Of a stretch of 48,710 bases of DNA, positions 7,003 through 45,385 are shown piece by piece. The stretch is from a virus. Lineage: Duplodnaviria > Caudoviricetes. The notes below the pieces were generated by a model, which did no database searches, was not told the origin of the DNA, and worked only from the letters and a program-made list of their open reading frames with translations. How positions within the stretch are numbered: the stretch's first letter is position 1; every line of letters starts with the position of its first letter. The DNA lies in IMG/VR virus record IMGVR_UViG_3300027707_000028, positions 1-48,710 of that record; one strand, 5' to 3'. A program made the position numbers and the translations under genes.

Positions 7003-10000
7003 ATGGCAGAATTTAGAATCAGTAGAATTAGATATACATGGAGAAACTCGTGGAGTACAACCACGGTGTACAATCGTGATGATGTGATAAGATACGGCGG
7101 ATCTACATGGATCTGCCAACGTCAACACACCGCTGCAACATTTTCCGCTGATCAAATATATCTAGCCAACGAAAACGACACAGCGCCAACACCTGCCTGG
7201 CTGAAAATGACCGACGGCTACGCATGGAGAGCTGCTTGGGCTATCACTACTTTATATAATCCAGGCGATCTTGCTTTATATGGCGGAGTGATATATCTAT
7301 GCGTTGCTAGCCATACTTCAGCAGCCACATTTGATGCCGGCTTAGCAAATTGGGCCGTGTATCTTTCTGCAGACAATTGGCGATCAGCATGGGCTCCTGC
7401 CACACGCTACGGCATCGGAGATATAGCAAGATACAACGGAGTGGTCTATCGTTGCATAGTAGGACATACATCGTCAACTACAGCGTTAGGATTAGAGATA
7501 GGTAACAATGATACTCAAGATGACAGCACAGGCGAGTTATGGCAGGTCTATTACGAAGGTATAGCCTATGCTGGCGCATGGACCGCAGCTACAAGATATC
7601 GTGCTAACGATTTAGTTAAGTACGGTGGAAGCGTATTACGTTGCACTATAGGACATGTTGCAACATCATATATAACAAATGCTAACTTTGTCACAGAATT
7701 TTCTGGACAGAATTTTTACAACTCGTGGACCATCACAGTTTACTACGCTGTCGGAGACATAGTTAGACATGGTGGATATCTCTATGTAGCTGCCGCTAAC
7801 AATTACGCCAGTATAAGCCCAGTAGAAGACACTGCAAACTGGACACTATTATCCAAGGCAGTGAATTTTGTAGGTACATGGAATTCAGATGTTGATTATA
7901 AAATTGGCGATGTTGTGCGACGAGGAGGAAATCTCTATGTAGCCACAGCAGATACCACCAACGATGGCAGTTCATTGGATTATTTAGATGCAGGAAATTG
8001 GGAAGTAGTTACCACGTCTCAATCTTGGCGCGGCTCATGGACTCTAGACAACATCTATAGTGTCAACGATATAGTGGTATATTTTGGTAACACATATGCC
8101 TGTAATTTTGAACACACCGCTGCTGATCAAAATCTTCCAGGGGACAACGGATCGGGTTTCTTCTATTGGGATCTAATTCTACAGGCTGGCCAACTGTCTG
8201 GCATGAGTCAACGAGGAGATCTGCTGACCTTTGATCTTTCAAGGACATTGCAAGGAGACGGTAGCTCATTTGGCCCTACATCTGTACCTATTGGAGAGTC
8301 TGACCAAGTAGTCATAGTCAACGACCAAAACGGAGTTGACTATGCACACTGGGGCGATCTTGCTAGAGTGAGATATGTGAGTGTAAATGGTGTTGATGAT
8401 GACACAGATCCAGAAAGTGGTACAAGTCAGTTCCTTCCTTGGAGAACCATACGCTACGCCTGCGAACACGCGGATGACGGGTTTGCCGGTAACACCACTA
8501 TTAAAGTTGCAGTGGGAGAATATGTAGAGATTACCCCTATCATAGTACCACGCAACACTGTGGTCCTAGGCGCAGAATTGAGATCCACAACTATCAAACC
8601 GTCTCCATCGATAGTATCTACAACAGATCGTCTCTATACCATTGCAGTATTGAATAGACTCTCAGGAGTAATACAGGCGATTGTAGCAGGAACAGCAATT
8701 AGTCCTGCAAAATCTGCAGGTAATATATTAGATCCTGTAATCGTAACTGAGTCAGTATCTGTGCCATTTAATCCTGTGCAGTATGATGCCCTCGGCAATC
8801 AAATTTATGACGAAGTGATACAACCTCGAGCTACCAGCAGTGTTGCTGCAATAGCTATTCAGGCTAAAATTGCCAACATGATATCCTATATTAATTTTTA
8901 TATTAATTCAACAGGTTTACCACCAACATTAGTGGGCACAAACACTGCGGTAACAACTGAAACATATGCCAACACTGTTTTACAACTAGAAGCCAACAAA
9001 GAATTCTTGGCTGCAGAAGCCGTGGCGTATATGCAGGCAACATACCCCGCATACGTATTCGACATAGAGTTATATAAAACAAATGTGCGTAGATATATAG
9101 ACGCCTGGAAATATGACATAATCTATACCGGTAATTATAAATCGTTGTTTGAAGCAAGATACTACAGAAACAGTGTGCTAGGTTGTACCGACACAGAAGA
9201 CATGTTCTATGTGAGAAATGCCACAGGCATCAGAAACTGCACATTGAAAGGTCTTGAGTCAACACTGAGTCCTCCGGTGGCATTTGAATTATATCAACTT
9301 CCATTAGGGGGCGCATATGTGTCACTAGATCCAGGATGGGGTACTGCAGACACACGCACATGGATCGATACCCGCTCTCCATATATTCAAGGTGTGACCA
9401 CCATAGGCACAGGCTGCGTTGGACAAAAAATCAACGGCGCTTTGCATGGTGGTGGCAATAGATCTATAGTGTCTAATGACTTTACCCAAGTACTCAGCGA
9501 TGGCATCGGTGCATGGGTGTTGAACAATGCCCGAGCTGAATTGGTATCTGTGTTCTCATACTATGCACACATCGGATACTTGGCACAAGATGGTGGAGTA
9601 ATCCGAGCCACCAACGGTAACAGCTCATACGGTAGCTACGGAGCAATTGCAGACGGCATCGACGCCACTGAAGTACCGCAAGTTGCAAGAAACTATACCA
9701 GAGCACAGCAGGCCATAGTGGCAGCAGCGTTTGCCGGAGACTTTGTTGACGAAATACAGATTTTAGAGTGGACCAATGCAGGACAAGACTATTCCAGTGC
9801 GACAGCTGAATTTACTGGAGCAGGTGTCAATGCCAGCGTGGTATTTGAAGATTTTCGAGATGATGCTGTGTTTGAAGCTAGGATCCTAGATGCCAATGCA
9901 GGCACTGCAACCATTGCGCAGTCCATAGGAGGGGGTGGGTACATCCTGGTACAGAACAACGCCCAGACCGGCACGGCTACTACTATTACCATAGCTACCA

Positions 10001-12644: not shown

Positions 12645-15600
12645 ATGGCAGAATTTAAATTAGGTAGAATTCGATTTGTATGGAAGAATACATGGACCGC
12701 GGCAACAACATATTATATTGATGATGTTGTTAGATACGGTGCTCGTACATATATTTGTGCGATAGGGCATACTTCTGGTGCAGATTTCAACACAGATTTA
12801 GAATACAGTCCAACCAAATGGAATCAGATGAGCGACGGCCAATCGTGGACCGGCGACTGGAATGTCAGCACTTTCTACAAACTCAACGACGTGGTCAAGT
12901 ACGGCGGCCTCTTATACATTTGCAACGACAGCCACACTTCTGCTGCTACCACAGCGTCGGGTCTAGAAGCAGACCAAGCCAAATGGACTGTGTATGCAGA
13001 AGGATTCGATTGGAAAACCAGTTGGACAGTGTCTACCCGTTACAAGGTAAATGATCTAGTCAAGTACGGTGGTTACACCTATGTGTGTAACCTTTACCAC
13101 ACTTCAGCTGCTACCGCAGCATCAGGACTAGAAGCAGATCAAGCCAAATGGGATACATTTAATCCTGGCGTAGAATACCAAGGCACATGGACCACTGCTG
13201 TTAGATACAAACTCAATGATGTAGTCAAATACGGCGCTGGCCTGTGGATCTGTGCTATTCAGCATACCGCAGATGCTGCATTCTTAACCGACAGCACAGC
13301 AGGTCGTTGGACTCAGTTCAATGAAGGCACTGAATTTGAAAACACCTGGAGCAATTCAACTCTGTATCAACCAGGCGACATCGTTGTTTACGGTGGTAAT
13401 CAATACATAGCTAAAACTGTGCATACTGCTGCATCTGCAGCAGCGACTCCTGTAATCACAACAACAGATTGGGACCTGTACACAGAAGGATTTAAATTTC
13501 AATCTGCATGGGCCAACACTACATCATACAAGATAGGCGAAGTGGTATCTATAGGCGGCTACACATATTTGGCAGCACAAGATGCTCCTTCAACTACCGT
13601 TACTGTCACAGAGGTAACCGCAGCCACTGATACATTTACCATAGCCTCAACCACAGGCATAGTAGTAGGCATGGCAGTGAGATTTACTGGCACAACATTT
13701 GGTAATGTGTTTACCACTGCCAGATACTATGTGAAAACTGTGGCAGCAGGTAACATCACAGTCAGCACCACTCCAGGCGGCACAACCTTCAATATCACTG
13801 CAGATGCCGCAGGCACAATGACTGCTACTGTATCGGCAGAACCACCAAACACCACATACTGGTCAAGACTCAATGCTGGTATCAGCTGGCAAGGTCTATG
13901 GTCAGATGACAGAGATTATCTGCTAGGTGACGCTGTGAGATTTGGCGCAAACGCCTATATCTGTTTGTTATCTCACAGATCAGAAGGCGACGACGGATCC
14001 ACAGTAGGTGCAGCAGGCGGCGGACAGGTTTACAGTAGACCTGATCAAGACAGCACCGGCACATACTGGAGTCTACTAAGTGTGGGTTCTGAAACTGATA
14101 TTCTTTCCGTAAGAGGCGATTTGGTCTACTATGGCGGTGCAGGTCCTACAAGACTGCCAATTGGCAGAGAAGGACAGGTCTTGGTTTCCACAGGTATTGA
14201 TCCAGAATGGGTCACCTTAGGCGAAACAGACCACACATATTTTGTAGCAACCACAGGTACAGATCTACCTTCACCCGTGCATGGAAGAACTTGGGACAAA
14301 CCATTCAAGACCATTCGCTATGCCTGTGAACAGGTAGAACGTGGTCCTAGAAATCCCGATGCACGATATCTGCTGGAATTGAATCGTGTGTTTGTCCAAC
14401 GCGAAGTCACAGAATTTATACAGAATCAAATCACCAACAACATTGCACCATTTATTGGATTTGTCTACGATGATTTTAAATGTGAGCGAGATGTAGGATT
14501 TACACTAGATGCAGTGATCTATGATTTATGCCATGGTGGTAATATTAAATCACGTGGAGTGGCCAATTCATTGATTGGCGGACTCAGCCCAGGTGAGACA
14601 GAAGCATATCCAGGGTTGACTACCGAAGGAACCAAATCCGTAGCTGCCTACAACTACATGCTCACAGTTGTCGGCAATGTTTTGGCACAGACAGCTCCAA
14701 CAATAAATTATCAGACACTGAACGGCGACAATTCCACTGCCACAGTGGCTCAATATTTCAACAGCGGCCTCACAGCAGAAGCTACTGCATTGACCACAGT
14801 AACAGCAAGTGTTACACTTATCACAAATGCTATCACTGCTAGAGTAGCAGCGGTTACAGCACCTCAGATAGCTGCTGCTATAGCCAGTGTACCAGCAAGA
14901 TACAGTCCTAGCAATCTTATAAGAATTGCCACAGGTCAATATCGTGAAACACTGCCTATTATTGTACCAGAACAGACCTGTGTGATCGGTGATGAACTAC
15001 GTTCGACCAACGCAGGACCTGCAGGCAGTCAGACTAATAGATCTGATGCAGGCTACAGCGTAGGTGCATTGACTAGATTGCAAACAGTGGTTGATCAGAT
15101 CGTACGAGGAACCAACGTCACAGAAAGCTCAGGTAATACCACAGTTCAAAGTGCAGTATTCCCATATGCCAGCACTGACGAAGCAGCTGATGCTGCACAG
15201 TTGGTCAGAGTCATGCAGCATCAAATTGATTTCAAGATCAGCTCTACGTTCATGGAGAGTTCTGCGAACCCCACAGGATATAATACTGCATTCTTAACAG
15301 GGTTTGGCGATGCAAGAACACTGCTGCGTGAAAACAAAGAATTTATCAAAGAAGAAATTACTGCGTATTTGACAGTGAATTTCCCCGCAGTGAAATATTC
15401 TAGAACCAAATGCAAACGTGATGTGGCATTTATTGTTGATGCCATGGGCTATGACTTGACCTATGGCGGAACTTGGGCCACGTTAGTAGCTGGCACAGCC
15501 TACTTTGACGGCGATAACAGTACAACATTACAGATTGACAGCACAGAAATTGCTGCCACTGTTGCTGCCTACGGCAGACTAAAAATCATTGTGCAGGAGA

Positions 15601-18600
15601 TTATCGCTAATACCTCAGTCACAAAGTCCACAGGCAACGCTGCCACTCAATGGACTGACAGTACTAATTTAACAGGCGGAGCCGCTGCCAATGTCACAGT
15701 GGGAGCATTGGTAGACATCATTACCAATATCATACAAGGTGATTCCACTGAGGCTACAACACCTCAGATCAATGTGACCACCATTGCAGGTACAAATACA
15801 TTCACATCTACTGCACACGGTTTGGCAGTAGGAGATGCGGTAATTCCAAGAATCACCGCCAACGGACTAGTCAACGGGGTCAAATATTGGGTGTCGGCAG
15901 TCGCTAGTGCCAACACATTTAGTTTGGCAGCTACCTACGGTGCTGGAACACTTACAACGTTTACCAACGGCAGCGGTCTTGCCATTGATCTTGAAACTAT
16001 TGATTACCCAACTGCAACTAACGCTGTTACATCAACCACTGCATTGATCACAGCAGCTAACACATTAGATGCTGCACAAGAAACCATTGTTCAAAATGTT
16101 GTAGATGACCTAAATGCAGTAGCATGGCACACTGACTTTGTGGTAGATGAAACATCATTGACTTCAACAAATTTTAGAATATACGTTGGAAAAACCAATC
16201 TAGTACATACATATGTCAGCGGTGGAACAGTAACTAAGTCTGATAGTTCAACCTTGGCAATTAGCAACTTTGTCTACAACGAATCTACAGGGTATGCGAT
16301 AGTAACCACTGCAACACACGGTCTAGCAGCAGGTGATATTGTTAACATAACAAGTATCACTGTATCTTGCTTATCGTCGGGCGGTACTGCCTTTAATGCA
16401 ATATTCCCGAGTGCCTACAAAACTGATGGGGTTACAGCTAAGATTCTATATCTCCAAACCAAGTGTATTAGAGATACTCGATTGATATTAGAAGCTGTGA
16501 TGTTTGACTTCATGTTTAACAGCAACTTTAAAACTAGAGAAGCAGCATACTCATACCTAAGAGCATCAGCATCAGAAGTATTTGTCGGTAACCAAAAAAC
16601 TATCACTAGAGATGCATTAACTAATGCCAAGACAGAAGCCATAGCCAATGTAGGCGGCAATGCTACTGCACAGGCTCGTATTGAAACACTAATGACCTTG
16701 GTAGATGATATCCTCTACGGCGCTACCAATGAAGGCAGTCGTTGCGCCACAGGTAATAGAATGGTTGATTATGCTGTGCTGCAATTAGAGCGCAACAGAG
16801 ATTATATAGTTGCGGAAATTGATGCTTACATCGATTCCACATATACTACCACAGTTACCGTTGCCACAGCAGCCACTGACTTGTTCACCTGCTCATCTAC
16901 TTCTTGGATGACAAGAAACGCAGCTATAAGATTCACAGGTACTATTGGCGGAGTGAGTACAACTACCACTTACTATGTACAGAATGTGGTGAGTGCAACT
17001 ACTTTTAAGATTGCCACCACAAGAGATTCAAACACAGCGTTTGATATTGCCACCGACGGCAGTGGTTCGATGACCGTGGCTTTGTATTACAGCAGCACAG
17101 CCTGCCTCAGAGATGTCAACACCTATATCGATGCACTCAAGTACGATTTGAAATATCCAGGTAATTACAAATCTAGATATGCAGCTAGATATTATGCCAA
17201 CAGTGTCACAGGTAGCCTAGAAGAGGACATGTACTATCTACGTGATAGCACCGGAGTTAGAGATCAAACTCTACAGGGACTAACTGGTGATTTGTTGGCA
17301 CCTAATGAATTTGGCACATCAAGAGTGAGTGCAGGAGCATACGCAAGTCTTGATCCAGGTTGGGGCCCAGAAGATTATCGCACATGGATCATCACACGTT
17401 CACCATATGTACAGGGTGTGACCACATTGGGCACAGCTTGCATTGGTCAAAAAATTGATGGTGCATTACATAATGGTGGCAACGATTCCATAGTTAGCAA
17501 TGACTTCACCCAGGTGCTCAGCGACGGTATCGGCGCATGGATTACCAATAATGGTCGTGCAGAACTTGTTTCTGTGTTTGCTTACTACAATCACATAGCA
17601 TATCTAGCAGAAAACGGCGGCAGAATCAGAGCTACCAACGGCAACAATTCCTATGGTGATTTTGGTTCTGTGGCAGAAGGATTTGACGCAACGGAAACAC
17701 CAGACACCGGCATAGTAGACAACAGACTACAGTTTGAAGCAGTAATTGATCGTGTTATCACTGATGGATCTGCACTGCTACAAATAGAATTCCAAAATGC
17801 AGGTATAGACTACACAGAAGTTAATTATACGCTCACAGGTGGTGGCAGCGGACAAGTTGTTGAAACTGACGAGTTCCGTGACGATGCTGTATTTGAAATT
17901 CGCATGTTGGATCTTATAGATGACAGTACCAATGCTCCAGAGGCCGACGGCAATCTCGGAGGCTTTGGTTATATCACCAACTCCAACACTGCACAGGGTG
18001 GTACATCAACGTCTGTTACCATTGCTGCCACAGACGGAGAATCCAGCACTGCTTACATAGGTATGAAAATTGTGATCACAGGTGGTGCAGGCGTTGGCCA
18101 GTTTGGTATCATCAACACATATAATTCAGGTACTAAAGTGGCCGGATTGATCAAAGAATCAGACGGCACAGCAGGATTTGATCATTTAATAGCAGGCACA
18201 ACAATTGCATCACCCGATGCGTCTACCACATATATCATTGAACCAAGAGTCACATTTACTGCACCTGGCTATACTTCTACAGCGGCCACACTGCCAACTT
18301 CAGGAGACTGGACCGCAGTGAAATACGGTGAAACCGCCGCAGTGTATACCACACTAACAGGTACTTACACAGGTTCCGGCTTAGGTGCTACTTTCACAGT
18401 GATACGCAATGGATGGAAATACACACCATCTGTGCAGGCTGCAGGCACAGGTTATACTAGATTGCAAACCATAACAATTTTAGGTACCAGCCTAGGCGGC
18501 ACCACAACTACTAATGATCTAGTGATCACAATCACAGCAGTGAATTCAACCACAGGCGCTATCATAGACTTTGATCATTCAGGCTACGGCATAGGTGGTA

Positions 18601-25216: not shown

Positions 25217-25240
25217 AATAAATGTCACAAGGAAAAAATA

Positions 25241-27651: not shown

Positions 27652-27664
27652 AGATGGAGAAAAC

Positions 27665-29633: not shown

Positions 29634-30193
29634 TGTCGTCTACTGTTATACCGTTTCCTATAAGCATTAAACCATTTAAGGAACATGTTCAACTAAAGCA
29701 ACAAGTACTAGATGCCATTTCAAGACAAGATCAGGTAGAACACATGCTGGCATTTAACAGCGATATCATTAGATGTGATTGGAGTACATCTCGATGTGAT
29801 GGCGAACGAGAGTGGCTAAAAATTATAAATTATCCTCTTGCTGTTCATCTCAACGAATGGTGTAATACCATGGGCTATCAAACTTTCGGCATCACTGAGA
29901 TTTGGTTTCAGCAGTATGCCACTGGAGGCAAGCATGCCTGGCATACCCATAGCAATAACTTTACCAACGTATATTATGTGCATTTGCCTGAAGGCGGCAC
30001 TCAAACAGAATGGATAGATCCAGTGACCAAAGATATACACATATTTGATGTACATGAAGGTGACATTATTACATTTCCTAGCTGGGTAATTCACCGAGCT
30101 CCGATTAATACCTCAGCAGAAACTAAAACAATCATTTCGTGGAACATGGACGTGTCGGTAAAAGATCATGATGCAGCCGGCATCTACGGCTAA
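29633..30193 (+). CDS. Putative 2OG-Fe(II) oxygenase
   Basis: WFQQY..GGKHAWHTH...VYYV...EGDIITFPSWVIHRA...KTIISWN. Confidence 0.78.
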   Translation: MSSTVIPFPISIKPFKEHVQLKQQVLDAISRQDQVEHMLAFNSDIIRCDWSTSRCDGEREWLKIINYPLAVHLNEWCNTMGYQTFGITEIWFQQYATGGKHAWHTHSNNFTNVYYVHLPEGGTQTEWIDPVTKDIHIFDVHEGDIITFPSWVIHRAPINTSAETKTIISWNMDVSVKDHDAAGIYG

Positions 30194-30211
30194 TGCAGGA
30201 GAATTTTTATT

Positions 30212-30727
30212 ATGACTAAAAAATCAGAGTACGAAGTAATAGATAATTTTTTAGATAAAGAATATTTTGATACAATAAAAAATACACTAACATCAGATGA
30301 CATAAATTGGTTTTATAGAGACAATATGACATCAAAAGATGAGCACGGTATGTGTTATTTTACACATAACTTCTTTATAAACAACCGTGTTTGTAGTCCG
30401 TTTTTTAATTTACTAGAACCATTATTATTATATAAATTAAAAGTTTTTTCATTACTACAAGCTAGAGCAAATATGACTATAAGTAAAGAAGATCGATACG
30501 AATCTTCTTGGCATGTTGATTACCCCGATGGAGATTCTAAAACAGCCATATTATATATAACAACTTGTAATGCTAAAACGATGATAGATGTTGAAAAAGA
30601 AATAATTGAGATTGATTCTGTTGAAAATAGAATACTAATTTTCGATACTGCTATTTCTCATAAAATGAAAAGTGCAACAGATGCAAAAAGAAGAATTATT
30701 ATTAATTTAAATTACTTTCAAAAATGA
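30212..30727 (+). CDS. Putative 2OG-Fe(II) oxygenase
   Basis: VIDNFL...WHVD...TAILY...SVENRILIFD...H...RIIINLN; AGGAG RBS. Confidence 0.78.
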   Translation: MTKKSEYEVIDNFLDKEYFDTIKNTLTSDDINWFYRDNMTSKDEHGMCYFTHNFFINNRVCSPFFNLLEPLLLYKLKVFSLLQARANMTISKEDRYESSWHVDYPDGDSKTAILYITTCNAKTMIDVEKEIIEIDSVENRILIFDTAISHKMKSATDAKRRIIINLNYFQK

Positions 30728-31086
30728 AATTATTTGGTAAAATAGAAAAAGGTTGGGGACACGAAATAATATTTTCTTCCACTGATCAATACTGTGGAAA
30801 ATATCTGGTGTTTGCCAAGGCCGGCGACAAGTTCAGTATGCACTTTCATCTTGTCAAAGATGAAAGCTGGAACGTCAATCAGGGTCGCTTCTTGTTGAGA
30901 TATATAGACACAAAGACTGCCACGATGCAGGAAAAAATCTTAAACACAGGCGATAATTGGCATAATCCTCCAGGGTTACCGCATCAACTTGAAGCGTTGG
31001 AAGACAATTCAATCATAGTCGAAGTGAGCACCCCTGATTCAGTAGAAGATAATTTTAGAATATTTCCCGGAGATAGTCAACGATGA
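30724..31086 (+). CDS. Cupin-fold protein (sugar-phosphate isomerase-like)
   Basis: KGWGHE...SMHFH..KDESW...PPGLPHQL...EVST cupin metal-binding motifs. Confidence 0.8.
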   Translation: MKLFGKIEKGWGHEIIFSSTDQYCGKYLVFAKAGDKFSMHFHLVKDESWNVNQGRFLLRYIDTKTATMQEKILNTGDNWHNPPGLPHQLEALEDNSIIVEVSTPDSVEDNFRIFPGDSQR

Positions 31087-31652
31087 ATTTTATTGAAGTG
31101 TATCCAGACGCATTTCCCAAAGACTACTGTGAAACTATCATACAAAGATTTGAAGATATGGTCAAAATGGGTCAACATCTCACACAAAACAGCATGATGA
31201 AAAATCAGGACGATCGAATATTTTTTGATTGGGCATTTCACAGTCAACAAAATTTCAGCGTAGATCCTGACCTGTGTTCTTTCTTTTATAAAACTCTAAA
31301 CAAGTATTATATAGAACAGTATTTTGAAAAATATCAGAGTCTTGGATTTTGTTTTCAACACACCCCCAAGGGCATGAGCGTACAGAGAACCGGCCCGCGC
31401 CAAGGCTACCATGCGTGGCATTGTGAAAATGCAGATCAATCATCAGCCAATAGAATCCTAGCCTATACCTTGTATCTCAATGATATTGAAGAGGGTGGCG
31501 AAACAGAATTTCTGTATCAAGGTATTAAGATTAAACCAGAAACTGGCAAGTTGATTATTTGGCCAGCCTATTTTACTCACCCTCACAGGGGGAATCCCAT
31601 ATATAAGGGTTACAAATACATTATAACCGGATGGTATTCACTGGATCACTGA
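31083..31652 (+). CDS. 2OG-Fe(II) oxygenase (prolyl-4-hydroxylase-like)
   Basis: GYHAWHCE...R.LAYTLYLND.EEGGETEF...KPETG...WP..FTHPHRG...KY..TGW. Confidence 0.88.
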   Translation: MNFIEVYPDAFPKDYCETIIQRFEDMVKMGQHLTQNSMMKNQDDRIFFDWAFHSQQNFSVDPDLCSFFYKTLNKYYIEQYFEKYQSLGFCFQHTPKGMSVQRTGPRQGYHAWHCENADQSSANRILAYTLYLNDIEEGGETEFLYQGIKIKPETGKLIIWPAYFTHPHRGNPIYKGYKYIITGWYSLDH

Positions 31653-31653
31653 C

Positions 31654-32052
31654 ATGGCTACAATAATAGTTAACGGCACATTTGATATTTTGCATCCTGG
31701 GCATGTTGCTATGTTGAACACAGCCCGTGGTCTGGGAGATTATCTTGTTGTATGCATTGATACAGATAGAAGAGTTCGAGAATTAAAAGGCCAAAGCCGT
31801 CCGATCAATGACCAGATTGATCGCAAAGTGATGTTACAAAATTTAAAAGCTGTTGATATTGTAGAATTTTTTGACAGCGAAGAAGAACTGATAGCATTAA
31901 TCAAACTGTATAAACCAAGTGTGATGGTCAAAGGCAGTGATTATCGCGGCCAGCGCATAGTAGGCGAAGAACACGTACCAAAGGTATTTTTTTATGACAG
32001 AGTCAGCGACTATTCAACAACTAAAACAATTCAGGATATTACTAATAGGTGA
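31654..32052 (+). CDS. rfaE2: Heptose-1-phosphate adenylyltransferase-like (RfaE domain II / HldC)
   Basis: NGTFDILHPGH (HxGH), LKG.SRPIN, VKGSDY, YSTT. Confidence 0.88.
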   Translation: MATIIVNGTFDILHPGHVAMLNTARGLGDYLVVCIDTDRRVRELKGQSRPINDQIDRKVMLQNLKAVDIVEFFDSEEELIALIKLYKPSVMVKGSDYRGQRIVGEEHVPKVFFYDRVSDYSTTKTIQDITNR

Positions 32053-32761
32053 CGACTGTCACGACATTTACACTTACGGTTATGTAAATCGCATCAGTCC
32101 CGAAGCACCCGTTCCTGTCTTTGAACCGCACTATACCATTCACAAGGATGGCATGGCAGGCAACGTGTGTAAGAATCTAGAAACATTGGGATGCACAGTC
32201 AACTTCCTACATGGAAAATCCAGCGAAAAGAATAGGCTAATTGATGCACGTACCAAGCAACAATTATTACGCATGGATCGAGATGTTGCCAGCGAACCCA
32301 TCACATTTGAAACTGCAATACCACCAGTGTACGATGCCATTGTGATCAGTGACTACAACAAAGGCACAGTGACCTACGAACTTATTGAAGAGCTAGTTAA
32401 AGCAGTCAACGTACCTATCTTTGTAGATACAAAGAAAACGGACTTGGCAAGACTCTCAGGATGTTATATCAAGATCAATGCATTAGAAAAAAGTCGTGCA
32501 ACAAGTTTACCTGACCCAAAGCATCTAATTGTCACACACGGCGGGGACGGCGCAGTATGGGATGGTTGGGTATATGCCGCTGAAATTGTAGGCGATGTAA
32601 CTGATGTGTGCGGTGCTGGAGATACATTTTTAGCAGCATTGGTATATGAGTTTTTGAAAACCGGACACATGGCCGATGCTGTTAAGTTTGCAAACAAAGC
32701 ATCGTCGATCACAGTACAACACGTTGGAGTTTATGCTCCTAGGCTAGAACAAATCAAATGA
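31994..32761 (+). CDS. rfaE1: Heptose-7-phosphate kinase-like (RfaE domain I / HldA, PfkB family)
   Basis: RISPEAPVPV, GMAGNV, ISDYNKG, DVCGAGDTF; exact start uncertain (59-nt overlap with the previous gene). Confidence 0.88.
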   Translation: MTESATIQQLKQFRILLIGDDCHDIYTYGYVNRISPEAPVPVFEPHYTIHKDGMAGNVCKNLETLGCTVNFLHGKSSEKNRLIDARTKQQLLRMDRDVASEPITFETAIPPVYDAIVISDYNKGTVTYELIEELVKAVNVPIFVDTKKTDLARLSGCYIKINALEKSRATSLPDPKHLIVTHGGDGAVWDGWVYAAEIVGDVTDVCGAGDTFLAALVYEFLKTGHMADAVKFANKASSITVQHVGVYAPRLEQIK

Positions 32762-33627
32762 TTATACTAACTGGGGCCGGGGGATTTATCGGCAGTGTGG
32801 TGTTAGGATACTTAAATTCTCAAAAAGTCAATGATATTATTATAGTTGACGATCTGCCTTATCAAAATCAATATAAAAATCTCATAGGTAAACAGTACAA
32901 AAAACTTGTTTCTATAGATGATATTGATTCAATCGATGAAGATATCACCGGAGTTATACACATCGGTGCCAACGCCAATACCCTAGAAAAAAATTGGAGT
33001 TCAATTTATGCAACAAATGTTAAATCTACAAGGAAATGGAATGCATTTTGTAAACAACGCAAAATACCTTTTATTTTTACTTCTAGCGCATCTGTATATG
33101 GCAACGGCTCCGGTCCGATGAATCAATACGCATTCAGCAAACTGCTCAGTGAAAATGAAGTGGAAGGAGTTGTCCTTCGGTTGTTTAATGTATATGGACC
33201 CAACGAGTATCACAAAGGAAGAATGGCTTCTACAGTTTTACATTGGTTCAATCAAATCAAAGACACTGAAGAAATAACGATATTCGAAAATAGCAAGAAT
33301 TATTTTAGAGATTTTGTATGGGTCGAAGATATAGCAAAAACTATACATTATTTTATGTTTGAAAATTATCAACCTGGAATTTATGATCTCGGCAGCGGAT
33401 CTAGCATAGATTTTGAAACCATAGCAGATCTTGTAATATTCAACACAAACAAAGGCAAAAAAAGATTTGTGGATATGCCCGATGATCTTAAAAAACAGTA
33501 TCAAATAAATACATCAGCTGATACGAAATTGTTAACAAAATCTGGGGTAGATGTCAAAAGTTTTACCAACGTGCATGCGGGCATCGCAACATACATAGAT
33601 TATTTGGCTAAAGATCGTTATTACTAA
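32758..33627 (+). CDS. rfaD: ADP-L-glycero-D-manno-heptose 6-epimerase
   Basis: TGAGGFIGS, SSASVYG, YAFSK (YxxxK), RLFNVYGPNEYHKGRMAS, RDFVWVED. Confidence 0.9.
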   Translation: MIILTGAGGFIGSVVLGYLNSQKVNDIIIVDDLPYQNQYKNLIGKQYKKLVSIDDIDSIDEDITGVIHIGANANTLEKNWSSIYATNVKSTRKWNAFCKQRKIPFIFTSSASVYGNGSGPMNQYAFSKLLSENEVEGVVLRLFNVYGPNEYHKGRMASTVLHWFNQIKDTEEITIFENSKNYFRDFVWVEDIAKTIHYFMFENYQPGIYDLGSGSSIDFETIADLVIFNTNKGKKRFVDMPDDLKKQYQINTSADTKLLTKSGVDVKSFTNVHAGIATYIDYLAKDRYY

Positions 33628-36281: not shown

Positions 36282-39200
36282 ATGGCAAAGAAACAGTTAA
36301 GCAATTATAAATTTTTTCCTGGAGTGGTGCCCCCGGCCTACGGCCAGTATCCAAACGCAGTGGCGTTGATCACTGCCAACAAGAATTTTGTAATAGAAGA
36401 AGCTAATCAATATATCAAAAATCAAATAGCTGCCAACGTTGCTAATTCCGGCAGTTTTTGGTATGGTTATGTTTACGATGCCACAAGAGAATTGAAATGT
36501 AAAAGAGACATAGAATATGTATTAGATGGATATATCTACGATCTTACCTATGGCGGAAATTCTTTAACCTATGCCAACGCTTCACGATACTATATCAATG
36601 GCGTCTTGCAGGTAGTATCAGGAGCAGTCGAAGTTGATGTACAAACTGAAATCAGGACACAAATTAGTGATCTAATCCTAACCAACGAAATTGATTCATC
36701 TGTGTTAAATCTTGTAGGCGAGACTCAGATTCTACTGCCCGCTGCAGAAGCCAGTGCATATTCTGAATTCCTTGCCTTGGCCAACATCATCATTGACGTT
36801 ATTGACACGGGTCTCAGCACATTACCTGCTCCAGTGGCACCTGATAGTCAAGGCGGCGGCCTACTACCCAATGCTGTTTATCTACTTGAAGCCAACAAGC
36901 GATTCGTACAAGAAGAAACTATTGCTTACATACAATACAATGTTGATAACAATATTTCACCTTATGCGAATTATACATACAATGCAGAAAAATGCAGACG
37001 AGATGTTAGTTACATTTTAGAAGGTTATCTCAGCGACTTGAAGAAAGGCGGTAACAGACAGACTTATTTCAACGCAGAAAAATATTGGGAAAACGGGGTT
37101 GCACAGGTAGATGGAGATCGCCAGCCTGAAATATATGCACATACCTTTATTAGGGATCTCATAGACAACTTTATTTGGACAAATGTAGCATTTACCCCTA
37201 GACAGATCTTAGTTAGTCAAGTTCGTGATCTGTCCTACACAGCAGAGCAACCATCACAGACTAGGTTAAAAGAACTCAGCAACATTGTCTTGGATGTGAT
37301 TGAATTTGGAATATCAAGATTGCCAACTAAGATCAGCAATCGTGGTTACGTCAAAGTACCTGGCTTTTACAAACTCAAAGATCTACTATTGATCACCAAC
37401 AGTTCACGCAACATCATCATGTATAATTTTGCTGATGATAGTTTGGCTGCGGAAATTACCTATTCAGAAAATTATGATGACAGTTTTCCAGGAGCATTAT
37501 ACGGTGTAGATAAAATCACCAGCATAACTCTTGACATAGATACCAGTGCCATGATGGTCACTGACAACATACAGATTTTTGTTGAAGCCAAGGAACAGGC
37601 AGTGCGTATGAACTCCATAGCCACTGATGCCATGGAAAGACACAAAGTAGGTATTCCGCAAAGCATGTTAGATGCTGACTTTGAATATGGACTTCAACCT
37701 ACCAAGTGGCAGGCCATTGCATTGATGCGTAACTATCCCAGCATCTATGAAATACCAGGCAGTGACATTCCTGTGACCAATGTGACCACAGATGCCAGCT
37801 CAGGTACCGGCGGAGTAGGTGCCAGTCTTATCACCGTAACTACCACAGCTGCTCACGGATTGGCTGCCTATGATCCCATAACCATCAAGGCTCTAAGTAA
37901 CAGTGTGCAGGGGTTTAGTCGATCTGAAGGAAGTTTTTTGGTTGCTGTGGTAGGATCAGCAACGCAGATATCTTATTACGCCAAGGCCAAAGTAGGAACC
38001 ACCAACGGTGAAGTATTGGCCAGCACATATACACAGTTGAGAAAAGGTGGCTTTTATACTGGATCTGCTGTGGGATCTCCTAGTTTCACGGTTGTGGCGG
38101 GAGGTAGTTCCGGCACCATAACCACCAGTTTGATCACACCCGCCGGTAGTACAACAATCGGATTTAGTGCAGGCGGTCCACAGATAGGAGCACCCGTTAG
38201 CGGCACCGGAGTTAACATTGGCTCACAGATCACAGCAGTCACCGGCTCTGGCGGTACAGCAGCATCGACCACTCTCAGCGCCAACGCTGATATCAGCGAC
38301 ACTACCATAGAGGTTACCAGTACCACAGGTATTGGTCCTGGACTGGTGTTTGATCGTGGCAACGGACAGGCATTAGTTGTAACCGATGTCACAGGTAACA
38401 CAGTTACCCTTAGTGGGGCATTGACTTCAGCAATCATAGGCACAACCAAAACCTACACTGCACTCACACAAAGCGCCACTTCCGGATCAGGCTCTGGAGC
38501 ACAATTCAGTATATCAAGAAGTCCTGGTTACGGTGTCACTGTGACCACTCCGGGTTCTGGCTACGCAGACAATGATACCGTGACCATTCCGGGCGCCAGT
38601 CTAAATGGCGCTACTCCTGCGAACAATGCCACTGTTACTGTGACGTCAGCCTCTCCTCTAAATGTAGCTGCTACTCTCGGTGCAATTACCTTAGGGGGCA
38701 CAGGGTATTTGACTGCTGCTGGAGTCACCACAACCAGTGGCGGTTCAGGCACAGGCCTTACAGTAAACATTACTGCGTCAGCTGGAGTCGTCACAGCTGT
38801 TACAATCAGTGCAGGCGGAACTGGCTACGCAGCCAACGAAGTCATCACTGAAGCCACCACCGGCCGTGTTAGCACTGCTGGTACAATAGTAGCAGGTACA
38901 GGGTATACCACTGCCAGCGGATTGTCAACCACAGGAGGAGCTGGCACGGGGATTACAGTTAACATCGTCGACGACGGCTCAGGCGGCATCTCTTCAGTCA
39001 CAGTCAACAGTACAGGATCTGGATATGTTGTTGGTAATACACTAACAGTGGTGCAAAGCGGTGGTGCCGCCGGCACATTTGACGTAGCTACCCTACATGA
39101 TCAGGCACAATTCACTGTGGCCACAGTGACCGCCGGCGGTGTAATTCAATCTGCCACTGTGGCAGGCACAGCAGTCACAGCTCCTACGAAAAACTTTATC

Positions 39201-42200
39201 AGTGCGTTTACCATCACTGAAGCAACTACTGCTCAAATAGCCAGCGGCAACACTGGTCTTACATTCTCAGCTATTTCTACCATACAAGCCACATTTGCCA
39301 CAGCCCACGGATTTGTACCAGGTAATACTATCACGGTACAGATCACAAGCTCAGGTGCCAATGCTCAATTAGCAGCTGGTGCTTACTTTGTAGAAAGTGT
39401 GCCTTCTTCAACCACGTTACGTTACACAGCTAGAGCTGCTGGTACCATAGACAATACCTTGGTTGGGCAGGTATATGGTAGACCAGATTCGTTCTTTGTA
39501 CACAGACCCTACGACGGCGGAGTGCAATTAGGCACAGCTGGACCAGCACACGGTGCTACTGCTATACGTATGAGTAAAAAATACATACGTTATCAATCAG
39601 GCAAGGGTGTTATGTATAACACTGGTGCGCTGTTTGCGCCTAGTTACGATCTACGTTCAGTCGCTGCCACCGGCACAGCAATAGGCAGCATCATTACTAT
39701 AATTTGTGATGACACAGACCACGGATGCCAAGTTGGTGGAGTTATCACAATCACAGGTGTTACTACTTCTGGATATAATGGCACTTATACAGTTGCTACT
39801 ATAACCAATGAAAGACAATTGAGTTTTGTAGCCACACAGATCTTAGGTAGTGCAACACCGGTGTTGGGCAGTCCTTGCTTGATGAGTGTGAAGAATTGGC
39901 ATGGTGCTACTATTCGAGCAGGTATATTTGATGATCAGAACGGCATGTTTTTCCAGTATGATGGTATAAGAATGGCTGTGTGCAGAAGAAGCAGCACATT
40001 TCAAATTGCAGGAACTATCAGCATCAATGCAAATGCCAACACAATAACAGGTACCAACACTCGATTCACAGAACAATTATCATCAGGCGACAGGATTGTC
40101 ATCCGTGGTATGACTCATGTGGTTTCCAATGTGGATTCAAACACATCAATGACAGTGACTCCAGATTTCCGCGGTGTTAGCAATGTCAACAGTGTAAAGA
40201 TCACCAAAGTTGTGGATACTTTGGTGCCTCAAAGCGATTGGAATCTAGATACCATGAATGGATCTGGGCCCAGCGGATATAACATAGACGTGACCAAGAT
40301 GCAGATGATCAGTATACAGCACACATGGTATGGTGCTGGATTCATTGATTTTATGATGCGAGGCCCAGACGGCAACTATGTATTTGTGCATAGATTCCGC
40401 AACAGCAACGTGAACTTTGAAGCTTATATGCGCACAGGTAATCAACCGGTGAGATATGAAGTGATCAACGAAGGCTTCAAAGGCAGATTGTCAGCAGCGA
40501 TGACCAACAGCCAGACCACAATACCCATGAGCGCAGACGACTTGTTTTGGTTTCCAAATTCAGGAACTGTGTATATAGACAATGAGTTGATCAGCTTTAC
40601 TGGTAACAGTGGCTCAGCGTTGACTGGCTGCACCAGAGCCGCTACTCTGAATCAATTCGTAGCAGGGTCGTCGAGAACTTTCAGCGCAGGCACAGCTGCC
40701 AGTCATGTCATACGCAGTGGAGTGGTATTGGTCTCCAACACAGTGACTCCGATCATCAGCCATTGGGGTTCAGCATTTATGATAGACGGACAGTTTGATT
40801 CAGATCGTGGATATATCTTTAACTATGCTGCTACTGGTCTATCAGCATCGGTTGACAAAGTCACTGCTTTCTTGATTAGACTGGCACCTAGCGTGAGCAA
40901 TGCGCTGATTGGTGATCTCGGCGAAAGAGAATTGTTGAATCGTGCGCAGTTGTTGTTGTCAAGTCTTTCTATCACCAGTGATACCGTTGCAGGTGGAGGA
41001 GCTATTGTTGTTGAAGGAGTTTTAAATCCAATCAATTATCCCACAAACCCAGCTAACATAACCTGGGGAAGTTTGATCACACAGGCAGCTGGTGGCCAGC
41101 CCAGTTTTGCACAGGTAGCAAGTGGTGGTTCTGTGACATGGAGCGGAAACGTTTCTACTACTACTTCGACTGTACAGGGAGCATTTAGTACCACACTCAC
41201 CGCTACAGGACAGGCAGCAGTTACGAACACGCTTACAGCAACAGCATTCAACGCTATCACACAGAATATCACAGCCGCAAGTTTTGGTCAGACCGTCTCA
41301 GCCCAGGGATTCAACGCAGGTCAGCCTTATGGTGGTAATACCTATGTCAGCGCAACCAGCACCTCCCGTAGCGATTTGTTGATTACAAACACACAATACG
41401 ATGGATTGGTAAATCCTATAACTGCGGGAGATTTGATTTCTGGTACTGGGGTAAACAGCACAGTGGCATCGGTGACCAGAGCCTATTTGGGTGGTATATA
41501 CACAAGAATCGTTATTAACAATTTACCAACAGTGACCAGTACAGCAGGCAATGGACAGAACGTTACATTGACAATTAATCCTGCATTATATAACAGATCG
41601 ATCTCAACTACTCGATCAGATTTCTTGATCACACAAGCGTCATATGCAGCTTTAACATCCTCACTGATTGTAGGCGATCCACTCACTGCCGCAGGCACCA
41701 TAGCTGGTGGTACTACTATTTCATCAATCACTCCAAGCTATATAACCATAGCAGGCACTGTGTATGCTAGAATTGTCATGAGTGCAGTTGGAAGTAGTAA
41801 CAGCACACTGCCTACCAGCAATGGCGCTAGCACCATAACCGTCACAGTGACCAGTGGCCAGGCCTCAAGATTTAACACAGCGTTGTCCACAAGTAGAAAT
41901 GACTTTCTTGTAACGCAGACACAGTATGCTGCTTCAACCATTGCTGTTTCAGATGTTTTATCTGTTGCAACGTTCCTCACAGGCGGACAAACTATTTCAA
42001 GTATAACACCAAGCTATGTCACATTGAGTGGAACAGTGTATGCAAGAATAATCATGAGCGGAAATGCCACGGCAACCAGCACCGCTGGCTCTGGCAACAC
42101 TGCGTCAGTGACCAGCACCAGTGCGATCACAGCTGCCTATGGATCAGCTATATCTGCTTCAAGAAGTGATTTTTTAATTGCCGACAGTACTGCTACAGTA

Positions 42201-43124
42201 TCTGGAATAGCTGTCAACGATGTGTTGAGTATTGCGGGCACAGGTACTACATTGGCAGCTGTGGTGATAACAGGTGTTGCCGGACAGTTTAGCTGTACAG
42301 CTACCACGCTGTTTACCGGAGAAAAAATAACCATCACTGGCACATATGGCGGCGGAGGCAGCATCAGTGGTTACACAACTGGCACTCAGTATTTTATTGT
42401 GGCCACCAACGGCTCTACTACGTTTACTCTAAGTACCACCTTTGGAGGAGCTGGAGTAACAACCACCACCGGTACACCAACAGGATTGACTTATACTCTG
42501 CAGACATTTATCAGTGGCAGCCAAATCATCACCAGTATCACCCCTAGCTATGTTACTATCAGTGCAACTCCCTATACCAGGATTACAATGAGTGGCGCTG
42601 CCAATCTTACATCTACAGCAGGCTCCGGTAACAATGTGGTTGTCACCATCACAGCTGCATTATCTGCTGCATCATATGTGAACAAAAACTATTTGTTCTT
42701 TACATCTACTTCTTGGTTGGCCAGCAATGCCGGAGTCAGCACCAAATTGGCTACTAGTAACACACAGTTTGCTGCTGGAACCAGCATAACGGCGGTGGAG
42801 TCAAGAACCTACGGAGCCACTACTGTTTACAGAGTGGTGTTTAGCCAAGCATCTAACACCACTATTTCGGCTGCTGCTAATATCACATGGCAATTTGGTG
42901 CGCTGTATGCACTGCCAGGTGAACAGGTATTCTCCTTTATTGCCAATCCCGGCAACACTGAACGATTGGATCTAGATGCGTTGAAAGAATTAACAAGCAC
43001 TGCCATTGGCGGCCGTGGTACATTCCCCAACGGTCCAGACGTGTTGGCTATCAACGTGTACAAGGTTGCAGGCTCAGCTACACCTGTAAACGTTATTCTA
43101 CGTTGGGGTGAAGCACAGGCTTAA
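36282..43124 (+). CDS. Giant virion structural protein (2280 aa) with two N-terminal phycobiliprotein-like units
   Basis: Uninterrupted ORF, very T/S/G-rich; SMLDADFEYGLQPTKW; repeated G.GY...D/E..T modules; KCKRD and KCRRD helical units. Confidence 0.85.
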   Translation: MAKKQLSNYKFFPGVVPPAYGQYPNAVALITANKNFVIEEANQYIKNQIAANVANSGSFWYGYVYDATRELKCKRDIEYVLDGYIYDLTYGGNSLTYANASRYYINGVLQVVSGAVEVDVQTEIRTQISDLILTNEIDSSVLNLVGETQILLPAAEASAYSEFLALANIIIDVIDTGLSTLPAPVAPDSQGGGLLPNAVYLLEANKRFVQEETIAYIQYNVDNNISPYANYTYNAEKCRRDVSYILEGYLSDLKKGGNRQTYFNAEKYWENGVAQVDGDRQPEIYAHTFIRDLIDNFIWTNVAFTPRQILVSQVRDLSYTAEQPSQTRLKELSNIVLDVIEFGISRLPTKISNRGYVKVPGFYKLKDLLLITNSSRNIIMYNFADDSLAAEITYSENYDDSFPGALYGVDKITSITLDIDTSAMMVTDNIQIFVEAKEQAVRMNSIATDAMERHKVGIPQSMLDADFEYGLQPTKWQAIALMRNYPSIYEIPGSDIPVTNVTTDASSGTGGVGASLITVTTTAAHGLAAYDPITIKALSNSVQGFSRSEGSFLVAVVGSATQISYYAKAKVGTTNGEVLASTYTQLRKGGFYTGSAVGSPSFTVVAGGSSGTITTSLITPAGSTTIGFSAGGPQIGAPVSGTGVNIGSQITAVTGSGGTAASTTLSANADISDTTIEVTSTTGIGPGLVFDRGNGQALVVTDVTGNTVTLSGALTSAIIGTTKTYTALTQSATSGSGSGAQFSISRSPGYGVTVTTPGSGYADNDTVTIPGASLNGATPANNATVTVTSASPLNVAATLGAITLGGTGYLTAAGVTTTSGGSGTGLTVNITASAGVVTAVTISAGGTGYAANEVITEATTGRVSTAGTIVAGTGYTTASGLSTTGGAGTGITVNIVDDGSGGISSVTVNSTGSGYVVGNTLTVVQSGGAAGTFDVATLHDQAQFTVATVTAGGVIQSATVAGTAVTAPTKNFISAFTITEATTAQIASGNTGLTFSAISTIQATFATAHGFVPGNTITVQITSSGANAQLAAGAYFVESVPSSTTLRYTARAAGTIDNTLVGQVYGRPDSFFVHRPYDGGVQLGTAGPAHGATAIRMSKKYIRYQSGKGVMYNTGALFAPSYDLRSVAATGTAIGSIITIICDDTDHGCQVGGVITITGVTTSGYNGTYTVATITNERQLSFVATQILGSATPVLGSPCLMSVKNWHGATIRAGIFDDQNGMFFQYDGIRMAVCRRSSTFQIAGTISINANANTITGTNTRFTEQLSSGDRIVIRGMTHVVSNVDSNTSMTVTPDFRGVSNVNSVKITKVVDTLVPQSDWNLDTMNGSGPSGYNIDVTKMQMISIQHTWYGAGFIDFMMRGPDGNYVFVHRFRNSNVNFEAYMRTGNQPVRYEVINEGFKGRLSAAMTNSQTTIPMSADDLFWFPNSGTVYIDNELISFTGNSGSALTGCTRAATLNQFVAGSSRTFSAGTAASHVIRSGVVLVSNTVTPIISHWGSAFMIDGQFDSDRGYIFNYAATGLSASVDKVTAFLIRLAPSVSNALIGDLGERELLNRAQLLLSSLSITSDTVAGGGAIVVEGVLNPINYPTNPANITWGSLITQAAGGQPSFAQVASGGSVTWSGNVSTTTSTVQGAFSTTLTATGQAAVTNTLTATAFNAITQNITAASFGQTVSAQGFNAGQPYGGNTYVSATSTSRSDLLITNTQYDGLVNPITAGDLISGTGVNSTVASVTRAYLGGIYTRIVINNLPTVTSTAGNGQNVTLTINPALYNRSISTTRSDFLITQASYAALTSSLIVGDPLTAAGTIAGGTTISSITPSYITIAGTVYARIVMSAVGSSNSTLPTSNGASTITVTVTSGQASRFNTALSTSRNDFLVTQTQYAASTIAVSDVLSVATFLTGGQTISSITPSYVTLSGTVYARIIMSGNATATSTAGSGNTASVTSTSAITAAYGSAISASRSDFLIADSTATVSGIAVNDVLSIAGTGTTLAAVVITGVAGQFSCTATTLFTGEKITITGTYGGGGSISGYTTGTQYFIVATNGSTTFTLSTTFGGAGVTTTTGTPTGLTYTLQTFISGSQIITSITPSYVTISATPYTRITMSGAANLTSTAGSGNNVVVTITAALSAASYVNKNYLFFTSTSWLASNAGVSTKLATSNTQFAAGTSITAVESRTYGATTVYRVVFSQASNTTISAAANITWQFGALYALPGEQVFSFIANPGNTERLDLDALKELTSTAIGGRGTFPNGPDVLAINVYKVAGSATPVNVILRWGEAQA

Positions 43125-43816: not shown

Positions 43817-43822
43817 TACTTA
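43817..43822 (-). promoter_or_regulatory. Variant late promoter TAAGTA
   Basis: Minus-strand GATAAGTA-TCTGC-ATG, the same 5-nt spacing as the TAAATA cases. Confidence 0.5.
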
Positions 43823-45385
43823 TCCACCTGCGAGCTTGAAGCTCCATTCTCCTGGCAAGTACTCACCTTCAAATGCCTTGAGCCATTGAGCACCGTCCCA
43901 CTTGTATTTGATACCTGTGCGTATGTTTTGTATGTAAAACGGCGCAAATTCTTCACCTAGTATATCTGCTGCCTCTAAGGTATTTTGATCTGGATCCCAT
44001 ATTGTTGTCCATGTGCTACCAGTCCATTCTACAATAGAGTTGGCTGTGATAACAGGATCTGTGCCGTCTTGATTTTCCCATGATGAATCATTGTTGCTGG
44101 GTTCTCTCCAGGCCTGCGGCCCACGATAAGGCACGCTGGTACTGTCTGCTGGATTAGAAGGTAGATTGATGTATCCGCCGCGGTTCTCACTGTTGTTGAC
44201 ATCGTCTAACATTAAAAATCTCAATCCTAGAGGAATAGCTGCATGTGATCCGTATACCTCTAAAGGATTGTACTTGTAGGGATCAATAATAGCATCTATG
44301 GTGCCACTGGTAGTTACTCCAGCTATATCATCATTGCCTGGATATGTATCTGTATCCAAGGACACTATTAGTATACTAGGTTCTATTGGGTTAATTACAA
44401 ACGTTCCTACTATTTCGAATCCGTTGGCTTTTTTAAACAAAACTTCGCTGCCCGGAACATATCCACCTTGTGTGTTCAATATTATATTCCAATCAATCGG
44501 CTCACCGTTTTTCACTTCCTTTTCGCTGAGACCTAGTGATGTCACTGCCTCTATGGGATTAACTAATGTTAGGTCGTATTGATTATCGTTAGGATTACCT
44601 GTATTTGATTTAAACAACAGAACTCCGTATCTACCATATGGTTGCCCGGATATGTTGGTACTAGAAGCACTGTTATTATAAATTAAATCTTCAAGATTTA
44701 ATACTTCGCCTTGTTCGGTAAACACATTGGCTACAATACTCTGCACTATACCTAACTTTTTAACCTTGGCTGGCGGAGATATGAACACAGGCATCTCAAA
44801 GTCTAGACTGCAGATGTCTATGTCCGATTCTGCTCCTTGTGGTATGGTTCTACTTGAAAAATTAGTGCCGGTTAGATACATGGCGCTGAGACTGGTCCAA
44901 TCAATGTAGTTGTCAGTGGTCTGCAGTTCCAGACTGGGATTAAACAACACCAGTATCTGTTCAAGCAACTGTAGTTTTTGATCTGTGTTAGAAGTCCACA
45001 CATCTGCTTTCATGGTCAATTTAAACGGTGTGGGCATCAATCGTTCTACAGTATAACTGCCGCCTTGCGCACCTGTGTATTCTCTAGTGCCGCCGGCATC
45101 TGTGAACCTACGCTCTCGAATATGTATCTTTGAAACAAATGTAGGATCGCTGAGCCTACTGGTGTCCATTTCAAGTCCTGTGATATAACAGGCGATTCTA
45201 GGCACAGTGGGCATTTTGTTTTCTGAGTTGTCTTTGATGATGCTGGCTACCTGCCTAGTTAGGTCTCCGTACATCACGGGTATCTGTCGCTGTTCGCCAT
45301 CGCCTGCTTGATACTTGAATCCAATGAACACACGCATGAACTGTGTGACATAGCGTCTTAGCTGTCCGTCGTAGTGAAAATCCAT
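43820..45385 (-). CDS. gp15: Tail sheath stabiliser / tail terminator gp15-like protein with C-terminal extension
   Basis: HY...LRRY...F..VF...IPV.YG, VPRI, MPTPF.L...., QKLQLLEQILVLFNP, L.FEM..FISPP match T4 gp15-type motifs; located next to neck genes. Confidence 0.8.
   Translation of the reverse strand: MDFHYDGQLRRYVTQFMRVFIGFKYQAGDGEQRQIPVMYGDLTRQVASIIKDNSENKMPTVPRIACYITGLEMDTSRLSDPTFVSKIHIRERRFTDAGGTREYTGAQGGSYTVERLMPTPFKLTMKADVWTSNTDQKLQLLEQILVLFNPSLELQTTDNYIDWTSLSAMYLTGTNFSSRTIPQGAESDIDICSLDFEMPVFISPPAKVKKLGIVQSIVANVFTEQGEVLNLEDLIYNNSASSTNISGQPYGRYGVLLFKSNTGNPNDNQYDLTLVNPIEAVTSLGLSEKEVKNGEPIDWNIILNTQGGYVPGSEVLFKKANGFEIVGTFVINPIEPSILIVSLDTDTYPGNDDIAGVTTSGTIDAIIDPYKYNPLEVYGSHAAIPLGLRFLMLDDVNNSENRGGYINLPSNPADSTSVPYRGPQAWREPSNNDSSWENQDGTDPVITANSIVEWTGSTWTTIWDPDQNTLEAADILGEEFAPFYIQNIRTGIKYKWDGAQWLKAFEGEYLPGEWSFKLAGG

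Follow-up and report, generated by a model that had tools for sequence, protein, structure and literature searches.

Light-harvesting phycobiliproteins occur as free α and β subunits, in which the N-terminal X/Y helices and Arg93 serve the α-β heterodimer; in phycocyanin, an Asp and an Arg hold the pyrrole nitrogens and a propionate of the bilin. As a precedent among large multidomain proteins, the core-membrane linker ApcE begins with a phycobiliprotein domain, there a single one within the phycobilisome scaffold. Outside the cyanobacteria, the bilin biosynthesis-associated globins BBAG-1 and BBAG-3 (Rockwell et al. 2023; PMC10151467) bear a CXRD motif, bind bilins without lyases and are, in the passages covered, photoinert and of low fluorescence. 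The same passages describe them as proteins of bacteria whose genes cluster with those for pre-PcyA, heme oxygenase, V4R and Fe-S proteins, a description that sets them apart from the domains reported here. Phages themselves carry bilin genes (hemO-pcyX, ho1-pebS/pcyA, cpeT), for which published readings send the product to the host antennae or call the purpose enigmatic; the part of PMC11480375 covered describes as "still enigmatic" the hemO and bilin reductase genes carried by phages whose hosts are non-photosynthetic. The literature passages on phage bilin genes name no phage-encoded bilin acceptor.

Here we describe a lineage of phycobiliprotein-like units in phage structural proteins, which is real and, as far as the literature covered goes, apparently unpublished: among the titles and abstracts listed in searches of the open full-text literature, none describes phycobiliprotein-like or bilin-binding phage structural proteins, although the supplementary globin tree of PMC10151467 may include phage sequences. 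The DNA analysed, hereafter the window, is a 48.7-kb IMG/VR virus fragment (IMGVR_UViG_3300027707_000028, positions 1 to 48,710), 18% complete, with tail-fibre, neck and tail-stabiliser genes. Its relevant features are the following.

36282..43124, + strand: 2280-aa giant protein, predicted virion structural protein with two N-terminal phycobiliprotein-like units (PHROG 5838 "virion structural protein", E 6e-235)
36351..36818, + strand: unit 1, aa 24-179, KCKRD, Cys73 codon at 36498-36500 (Pfam PF00502 E 0.0045, below cut-off)
36867..37316, + strand: unit 2, aa 196-345, KCRRD, Cys238 codon at 36993-36995 (modelled, pLDDT 94)
37332..43121, + strand: protein body after the units; aa 351-1500 related to cyanophage virion structural proteins (S-CAM1 50%, S-PM2 33.5% identity)
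14355..14843, + strand: unit in ORF 12645 (tail-fibre-like, 2611 aa), CxRD at C613 (profile match)
15309..15740, + strand: unit in ORF 12645, CxRD at C923 (profile match)
16440..16706, + strand: unit core in ORF 12645, CxRD at C1274 (partial profile match)
17067..17213, + strand: unit core in ORF 12645, CxRD at C1487 (partial profile match)
8971..9195, + strand: degenerate seventh unit in ORF 7003 (1867 aa), aa 657-731, triad lost (E 3e-16)
43820..45385, - strand: T4 gp15-type tail sheath stabiliser; among isolates, nearest to those of PA5oct-like and other proteobacterial jumbo phages (30-33% identity)

Relationship of the units to phycobiliproteins

As anticipated from the sequence, the 2280-aa protein (ORF 36282-43124) opens with two units that contain C73 and C238, each within an intact CxRD, and with the four motifs of ORF 12645 (C613, C923, C1274, C1487) the predicted window total of six is reached. 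Over aligned columns, the two units share 42% identity. There are 8 Cys in the protein, whose composition leads to an expected 0.009 CxRD motifs; together with the concordant profile and fold results given below, this rules out a chance occurrence of the motif. BLASTP comparison with ORFs 7003 and 12645 returned six matches at E ≤ 1e-3, all of them pairing unit with unit, so that the remainder of the protein is unrelated to this pair, in line with the original prediction. The annotations of its S-CAM1 and S-PM2 relatives and PHROG 5838 point to a location of the protein in the virion.

Profile and structure searches, set beforehand as the test of a phycobiliprotein-like identity, both ranked phycobiliproteins first. 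With a profile built on a 26-row unit alignment (A1), all 59 PDB matches at E ≤ 1 were phycobiliproteins or derivatives (best CpcA, E 5.4e-6), spanning the first 62 profile positions and centred on the bilin-attachment helix. Pfam PF00502 matched aa 25-95 with E 0.0045, its 17.4 bits on aa 1-360 staying below the gathering cut-off of 22.2 bits; unit 2 alone gave no match to this family, five of the 26 aligned units matched at E ≤ 0.1, and the Pfam label is carried by 3 of 120 among the homologues listed. In a Foldseek search of the PDB with the model of unit 2 (pLDDT 94, pTM 0.89), biliproteins or their complexes made up 32 of 32 among the matches listed (TM 0.49-0.61), with a best E-value of 7e-3 and none under 0.001. 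A wide structural search (VIA) was headed by allophycocyanin 8or7 (Z 13.3, rmsd 2.3, 116 aligned) and phycoerythrin 5aqd (Z 13.2, rmsd 2.8, 140 aligned), with ApcE 4xxi next (Z 12.7); non-bilin globins, including globin-coupled sensors, reached Z 8-11.5, the best of them (Z 11-11.5) within 2 of the top. The ESM Atlas search yielded no usable match.

By profile and predicted fold, the units are phycobiliprotein-related globin domains, which likely work like a biliprotein, yet outside the light-harvesting subunit family. With that family (PF00502) they share the globin core, about residues 33-160, and their K-C-x-R-D, the following Tyr and a GG turn align with CpcA 83-104, the motif corresponding to C84/R86/D87 of CpcA. 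Their nearest phycobiliprotein is CpcA by sequence, and allophycocyanin and phycoerythrin by fold. Unlike phycobiliproteins, they are without the X/Y helices, since model residues 1-149 match known chains from residue 32/33 on (range across searches 32-39). The position of CpcA Arg93 is an Asp in 75% of units (532/710), an extra invariant Asp is present and the scores here lie below the Pfam cut-off. In contrast to free subunits, the units form 1-37 repeats inside giant phage proteins and, in contrast to the single domain of ApcE, tandem arrays in a predicted virion protein. A model of the tandem (pLDDT 81, pTM 0.64), for which the fold search matched single chains only, contains two domains whose relative packing is unreliable; as both fold complete in this model, the construct proposed earlier for expression (residues ~20-350) appears sound.

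ORF 7003, in which no CxRD occurs anywhere, retains a unit (8971-9195) with Cys, Arg and Asp all gone, and its orthologues in two related genomes, G005 and G006, are likewise without CxxD; it amounts to a negative control provided by nature. The third and fourth units of ORF 12645 (16440-17213) gave core-only matches, inserted beta-rich modules appearing to part the N-terminal helices from the core.

Conservation, spread and shuffling of the unit

A word-based search recovered 433 proteins; with the unit profile, 1615 clusters (50% identity) were found, in which a single protein has up to 37 matched stretches. Conservation was assessed on 120 + 150 proteins among the matches listed, which gave 2035 units, 1983 with a complete core and 710 after dereplication at 50%. 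CxRD is intact in 637 of these 710, with C in 665 (94%), R in 654 (92%) and D in 694 (98%), which upholds the proposed selection for the Cys/Arg/Asp triad. A disulfide role for the motif Cys was ruled out for lack of a conserved partner, the best other Cys column reaching 55/710. An Asp 14 residues after the Cys, without phycobiliprotein counterpart, is found in 700/710 units. Heme-binding globins have a conserved proximal histidine; here, none of the 150 profile columns is mostly His (highest listed share 16%). Among 50,697 GenBank phage records, the tandem query had 213 matches, all named Synechococcus, Prochlorococcus or Cyanophage, and a second unit as query found 197 records, 196 of them so named.

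The unit had also been called a mobile module. It has indeed been shuffled between proteins, because the cyanophage virion relatives of the body carry no units there: the body homologue of S-PM2 lies at 126-128 kb and its units elsewhere, at 55-58 and 166-170 kb, and that of the genome G026 is likewise without units. The 119 proteins sharing aa 346-600 hold 2, 3, 4, 5 or 7 units each, zero-unit cases being absent because the proteins were selected through the unit, and a relative of the 2280-aa protein in the genome G024 holds one; the copy number on body relatives thus runs from 1 to 7, with up to 37 stretches in other proteins. Proteins of 73-300 aa provided no convincing stand-alone unit (17 of 20 short matches lie on contigs of ≤6.2 kb, and the two significant matches on long contigs seem to be cut short), so that "mobile" stands in the sense of domain shuffling but not of an independent form.

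Bilin genes, hosts and light-dependent adsorption

In the genome G006, which is colinear with the window (280 kb; completeness 79%), a heme oxygenase gene adjoins a bilin reductase gene. The reductase resembles PcyX 5owg most closely (E 2.6e-70) and bears an Asp at the PcyA Glu76 position, given as the PcyX signature in the passage covered of PMC13446030. The genes on either side of this hemO-pcyX pair are clpS, an hsp20-like gene and dnaK, and the unit genes lie about 150 kb away. Among the best 80 of 386 viral reductase relatives, 80/80 have an oxygenase gene ≤3 kb away and 80/80 the PcyX Asp. Units are present in seven of the eight other contigs >120 kb picked by pcyX (the exception is 50% complete), and both units and reductase in 4/4 new contigs >140 kb picked by hemO from 80 hemO loci; long contigs picked by either gene thus carry units in 11 of 12 cases. 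G024 (353 kb; completeness 98%), selected through its neck gene only and the sole new long contig among 80 neck-gene loci, encodes a bilin reductase along with its unit-bearing relative of the 2280-aa protein, and is without a photosynthetic reaction-centre gene.

The reductase was seen in only two of 12 IMG/VR records (G006 and G001), nine of the other ten being ≤40% complete. No bilin gene was found within the window (18% complete) or seen in the closest near-complete relative, G005, whose contig ends just before the syntenic region, so that its lack of hemO-pcyX is uninformative. The distant relatives PA5oct and Phosso have neither units nor bilin reductase. The SAR11 phage Mosig (with hemO-pcyX), P-SSM2 and S-SSM7 have the reductase, and three unfiltered HMMs detected no units in them. 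In Pelagibacter phage Mosig (L348:2445-6678), hemO-pcyX lies directly upstream of neck and tail-stabiliser genes with no unit detectable, and a different bilin acceptor may be present in that structural module.

Phage hemO-pcyX, ho1-pebS/pcyA and cpeT hence co-occur with units in the same genomes. With the BBAGs, as published in the passages covered, the units have in common the CXRD, an occurrence outside cyanobacteria and a genomic tie to heme oxygenase and a PcyA-lineage reductase; unlike BBAGs, they are domains of phage structural proteins and in G006 lie far from hemO-pcyX. cpeT was not found in G005, G006, G016, G017, G018 or G020, which for G006, G016, G017, G018 and G020 parallels the lyase independence of the BBAGs.

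The source is an uncultured jumbo phage, and its host is probably a non-cyanobacterial proteobacterium, since its gp15 is akin to that of jumbo phages of Proteobacteria, the best matches of the G006 DnaK are from Gammaproteobacteria including Burkholderiaceae (75-76% in the best segment; 6/64 parts of the collection scanned) and a reaction-centre gene is present in 0/5 relatives. These results leave a cyanophage identity of the window unsupported. Ribosomal protein S21 is encoded in 5/5 relatives.

Units also occur in cyanophages. In a hand-chosen, non-random set of 18 T4-like cyanophages, 11 have units and cpeT (S-PM2, P-HM1, P-HM2, P-SSM4, P-SSM7, P-RSM4, Syn9, S-SM1, P-TIM40, S-WAM1 and S-CAM7) and six have neither (P-SSM2, S-SM2, S-SSM7, S-CRM01, P-TIM68 and S-CAM9); S-SKS1 has one unit and cpeT was not found in it, giving a concordance of 17/18. 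The naive Fisher p of 3.8e-4 ignores kinship and is not counted as support. On a gp23 tree of the 18 cyanophages and two SAR11 phages, the unit label changes three times and cpeT twice, with one independent pair on well-supported branches (three on the best tree), so that the match is not significant once kinship is considered. In S-PM2, cpeT lies about 1.5 kb before a unit-bearing gene. S-RIM32, S-CAM3, S-H9-2, ACG-2014j and Sf-FP1 have it no further than about 3-7 kb from a unit, whereas in P-HM2, Syn9 and S-SM1 the distance is 35-60 kb. P-SSM4, said to lack cpeT in a passage of PMC2984593, has a CpeT family match above cut-off (W08:C1:16642-17064).

Unit presence can also be set beside adsorption phenotypes. 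According to the passages covered of PMC6628666, P-HM1 and P-HM2 do not adsorb in the dark and P-SSM2, P-SSP7 and P-GSP1 do, P-SSM2 still adsorbing better in light; the same paper cites a light-dependent, photosynthesis-independent adsorption of S-PM2 and leaves open which light-sensitive receptors or tail fibres make adsorption depend on light. Units are present in P-HM1, P-HM2 and S-PM2 and absent from P-SSM2, P-SSP7 and P-GSP1, a match of 3 vs 3 in which P-HM1 and P-HM2 are near copies and two of the negatives are podoviruses. The correlations of units with cpeT and with adsorption are both confounded by kinship. A preprint (10.1101/167650) states, in the part covered, that adsorption is unaffected by dim red light, which fits a green-absorbing pigment without singling one out.

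Candidate functions of the units

We consider it highly probable that the units are bilin-carrying virion modules, and rate covalent bilin binding as just as probable. As the best overall explanation, with a probability of roughly 0.4, we propose that these bilin-loaded modules give the particle a light response. The proposal starts from what the sequences show: kinship with phycobiliproteins, the predicted fold, a retained motif, missing dimer helices and the presence of hemO-pcyX in relatives that are near complete. Heme would be opened by phage HemO and then reduced by PcyX, likely to phycoerythrobilin in view of the PcyX-type Asp. One bilin would be attached per unit, at its Cys, during assembly, with the Asp and Arg of the motif gripping it at the same points as in phycocyanin, the pyrrole nitrogens and a propionate. 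By analogy with BBAGs, loading in this phage group may occur by lyase-free self-ligation, and in cyanophages by ligation through phage CpeT. The pigmented protein would then be built into and displayed on the particle, and the finished particle would respond to light, e.g. by gated attachment, acting as an antenna array or a conformational switch. Arguments against a classic switch are the photoinert BBAGs, the probable heterotrophy of the host and phycoerythrobilin chemistry: isomerisation in classic biliprotein switches takes place at a 15,16 double bond, which this pigment lacks.

The strongest competitor, though itself unlikely, accepts the bilin and dispenses with signalling: the pigment would merely screen out light, or coat the particle as an antioxidant, so that particles last longer in sunlit water. 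The same profile, fold and motif evidence for binding applies to it, and up to 37 matched stretches per protein, with 41 in one genome, suggest bulk pigment more than a single switch. The low-fluorescence, photoinert BBAGs and the probable non-cyanobacterial proteobacterial host fit this screen as well, and the PcyX Asp in all 80 of the best reductase loci predicts a pigment unsuited to classic isomerisation. Yet unit presence tracks light-dependent adsorption in the six phenotyped isolates, and it is mainly on this match that we favour the light response; moreover, a green-absorbing bilin is a poor UV shield for DNA.

We regard as improbable that the unit is a bilin-free structural spacer, i.e. 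a reused phycobiliprotein-derived globin that keeps its motif for folding. Such a role would accommodate the persistence of the degenerate unit in ORF 7003, the incomplete triad in 73/710 units, the near-invariant Asp 14 residues past the Cys and the three phages with reductase and no units, but folding alone hardly explains why an unpaired Cys is retained by 94% of units that share less than 50% identity, when Cys makes up 0.6% of their proteins; the co-occurrence of units with hemO-pcyX and cpeT also speaks against it. Least probable is non-covalent binding of heme, or of a tetrapyrrole from the host, which would serve to recognise the host or to deliver iron via an uptake receptor, which the near ranking of other globins in the fold search (Z 8-11.5), the presence of units in tail-fibre-like proteins and the iron supply mentioned as a proposed role of phage hemO in a passage of PMC11480375 would suit, but against which stand the missing His column and a sequence similarity to phycobiliproteins only, centred on the bilin-attachment helix.

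Taking the light response further, we put forward as a doubtful but consequential generalisation that many aquatic phages might make their own bilin, load virion globin arrays with it and use the resulting photoreceptor to time attachment to daylight. If true, this would at once identify the missing acceptor for the bilins that phage PcyX, PebS and PcyA make, the true CpeT substrate and the light-adsorption sensor; phages would have a reason to encode pigment-making enzymes, and bilin chemistry would be found in a new location, the virion. Two puzzles, as posed in the passages covered on phage bilin genes (PMC11480375) and light-dependent adsorption (PMC6628666), become testable, and units occur in culturable phages of known phenotype (S-PM2, P-HM1 and P-HM2). 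Monomeric, possibly self-ligating 150-aa biliproteins, of which there would be 1615 clusters, bear on phycobiliprotein origins and on fluorescent-tag design.

Some further features were observed in passing. A 6682-aa ORF (G020:C1:104042-122812) holds most of the 41 unit matches of its 400-kb complete genome, and another unit-bearing protein of G005 (2485 aa; G005:C1:208838-216292) misses CxxD in two of three units. In G006 (L224:3731-9260), a curli-like cassette (CsgG E 1.6e-49, CsgA-like, FecR/LipL45-like) lies beside hemO-pcyX, clpS, dnaK and rpsU. Each of the two tail-fibre-like proteins encoded by ORFs 7003 and 12645 opens with six CBM_5_12 carbohydrate-binding repeats (7003-8100 and 12645-14100). 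Finally, the stretch between the tail-fibre genes (24230-33627) encodes a carbamoyltransferase, a glycosyltransferase-like protein, at least five 2OG-Fe(II) oxygenases, a cupin, a cytidylyltransferase, a PfkB protein and an epimerase, and possibly serves virion or glycan modification.
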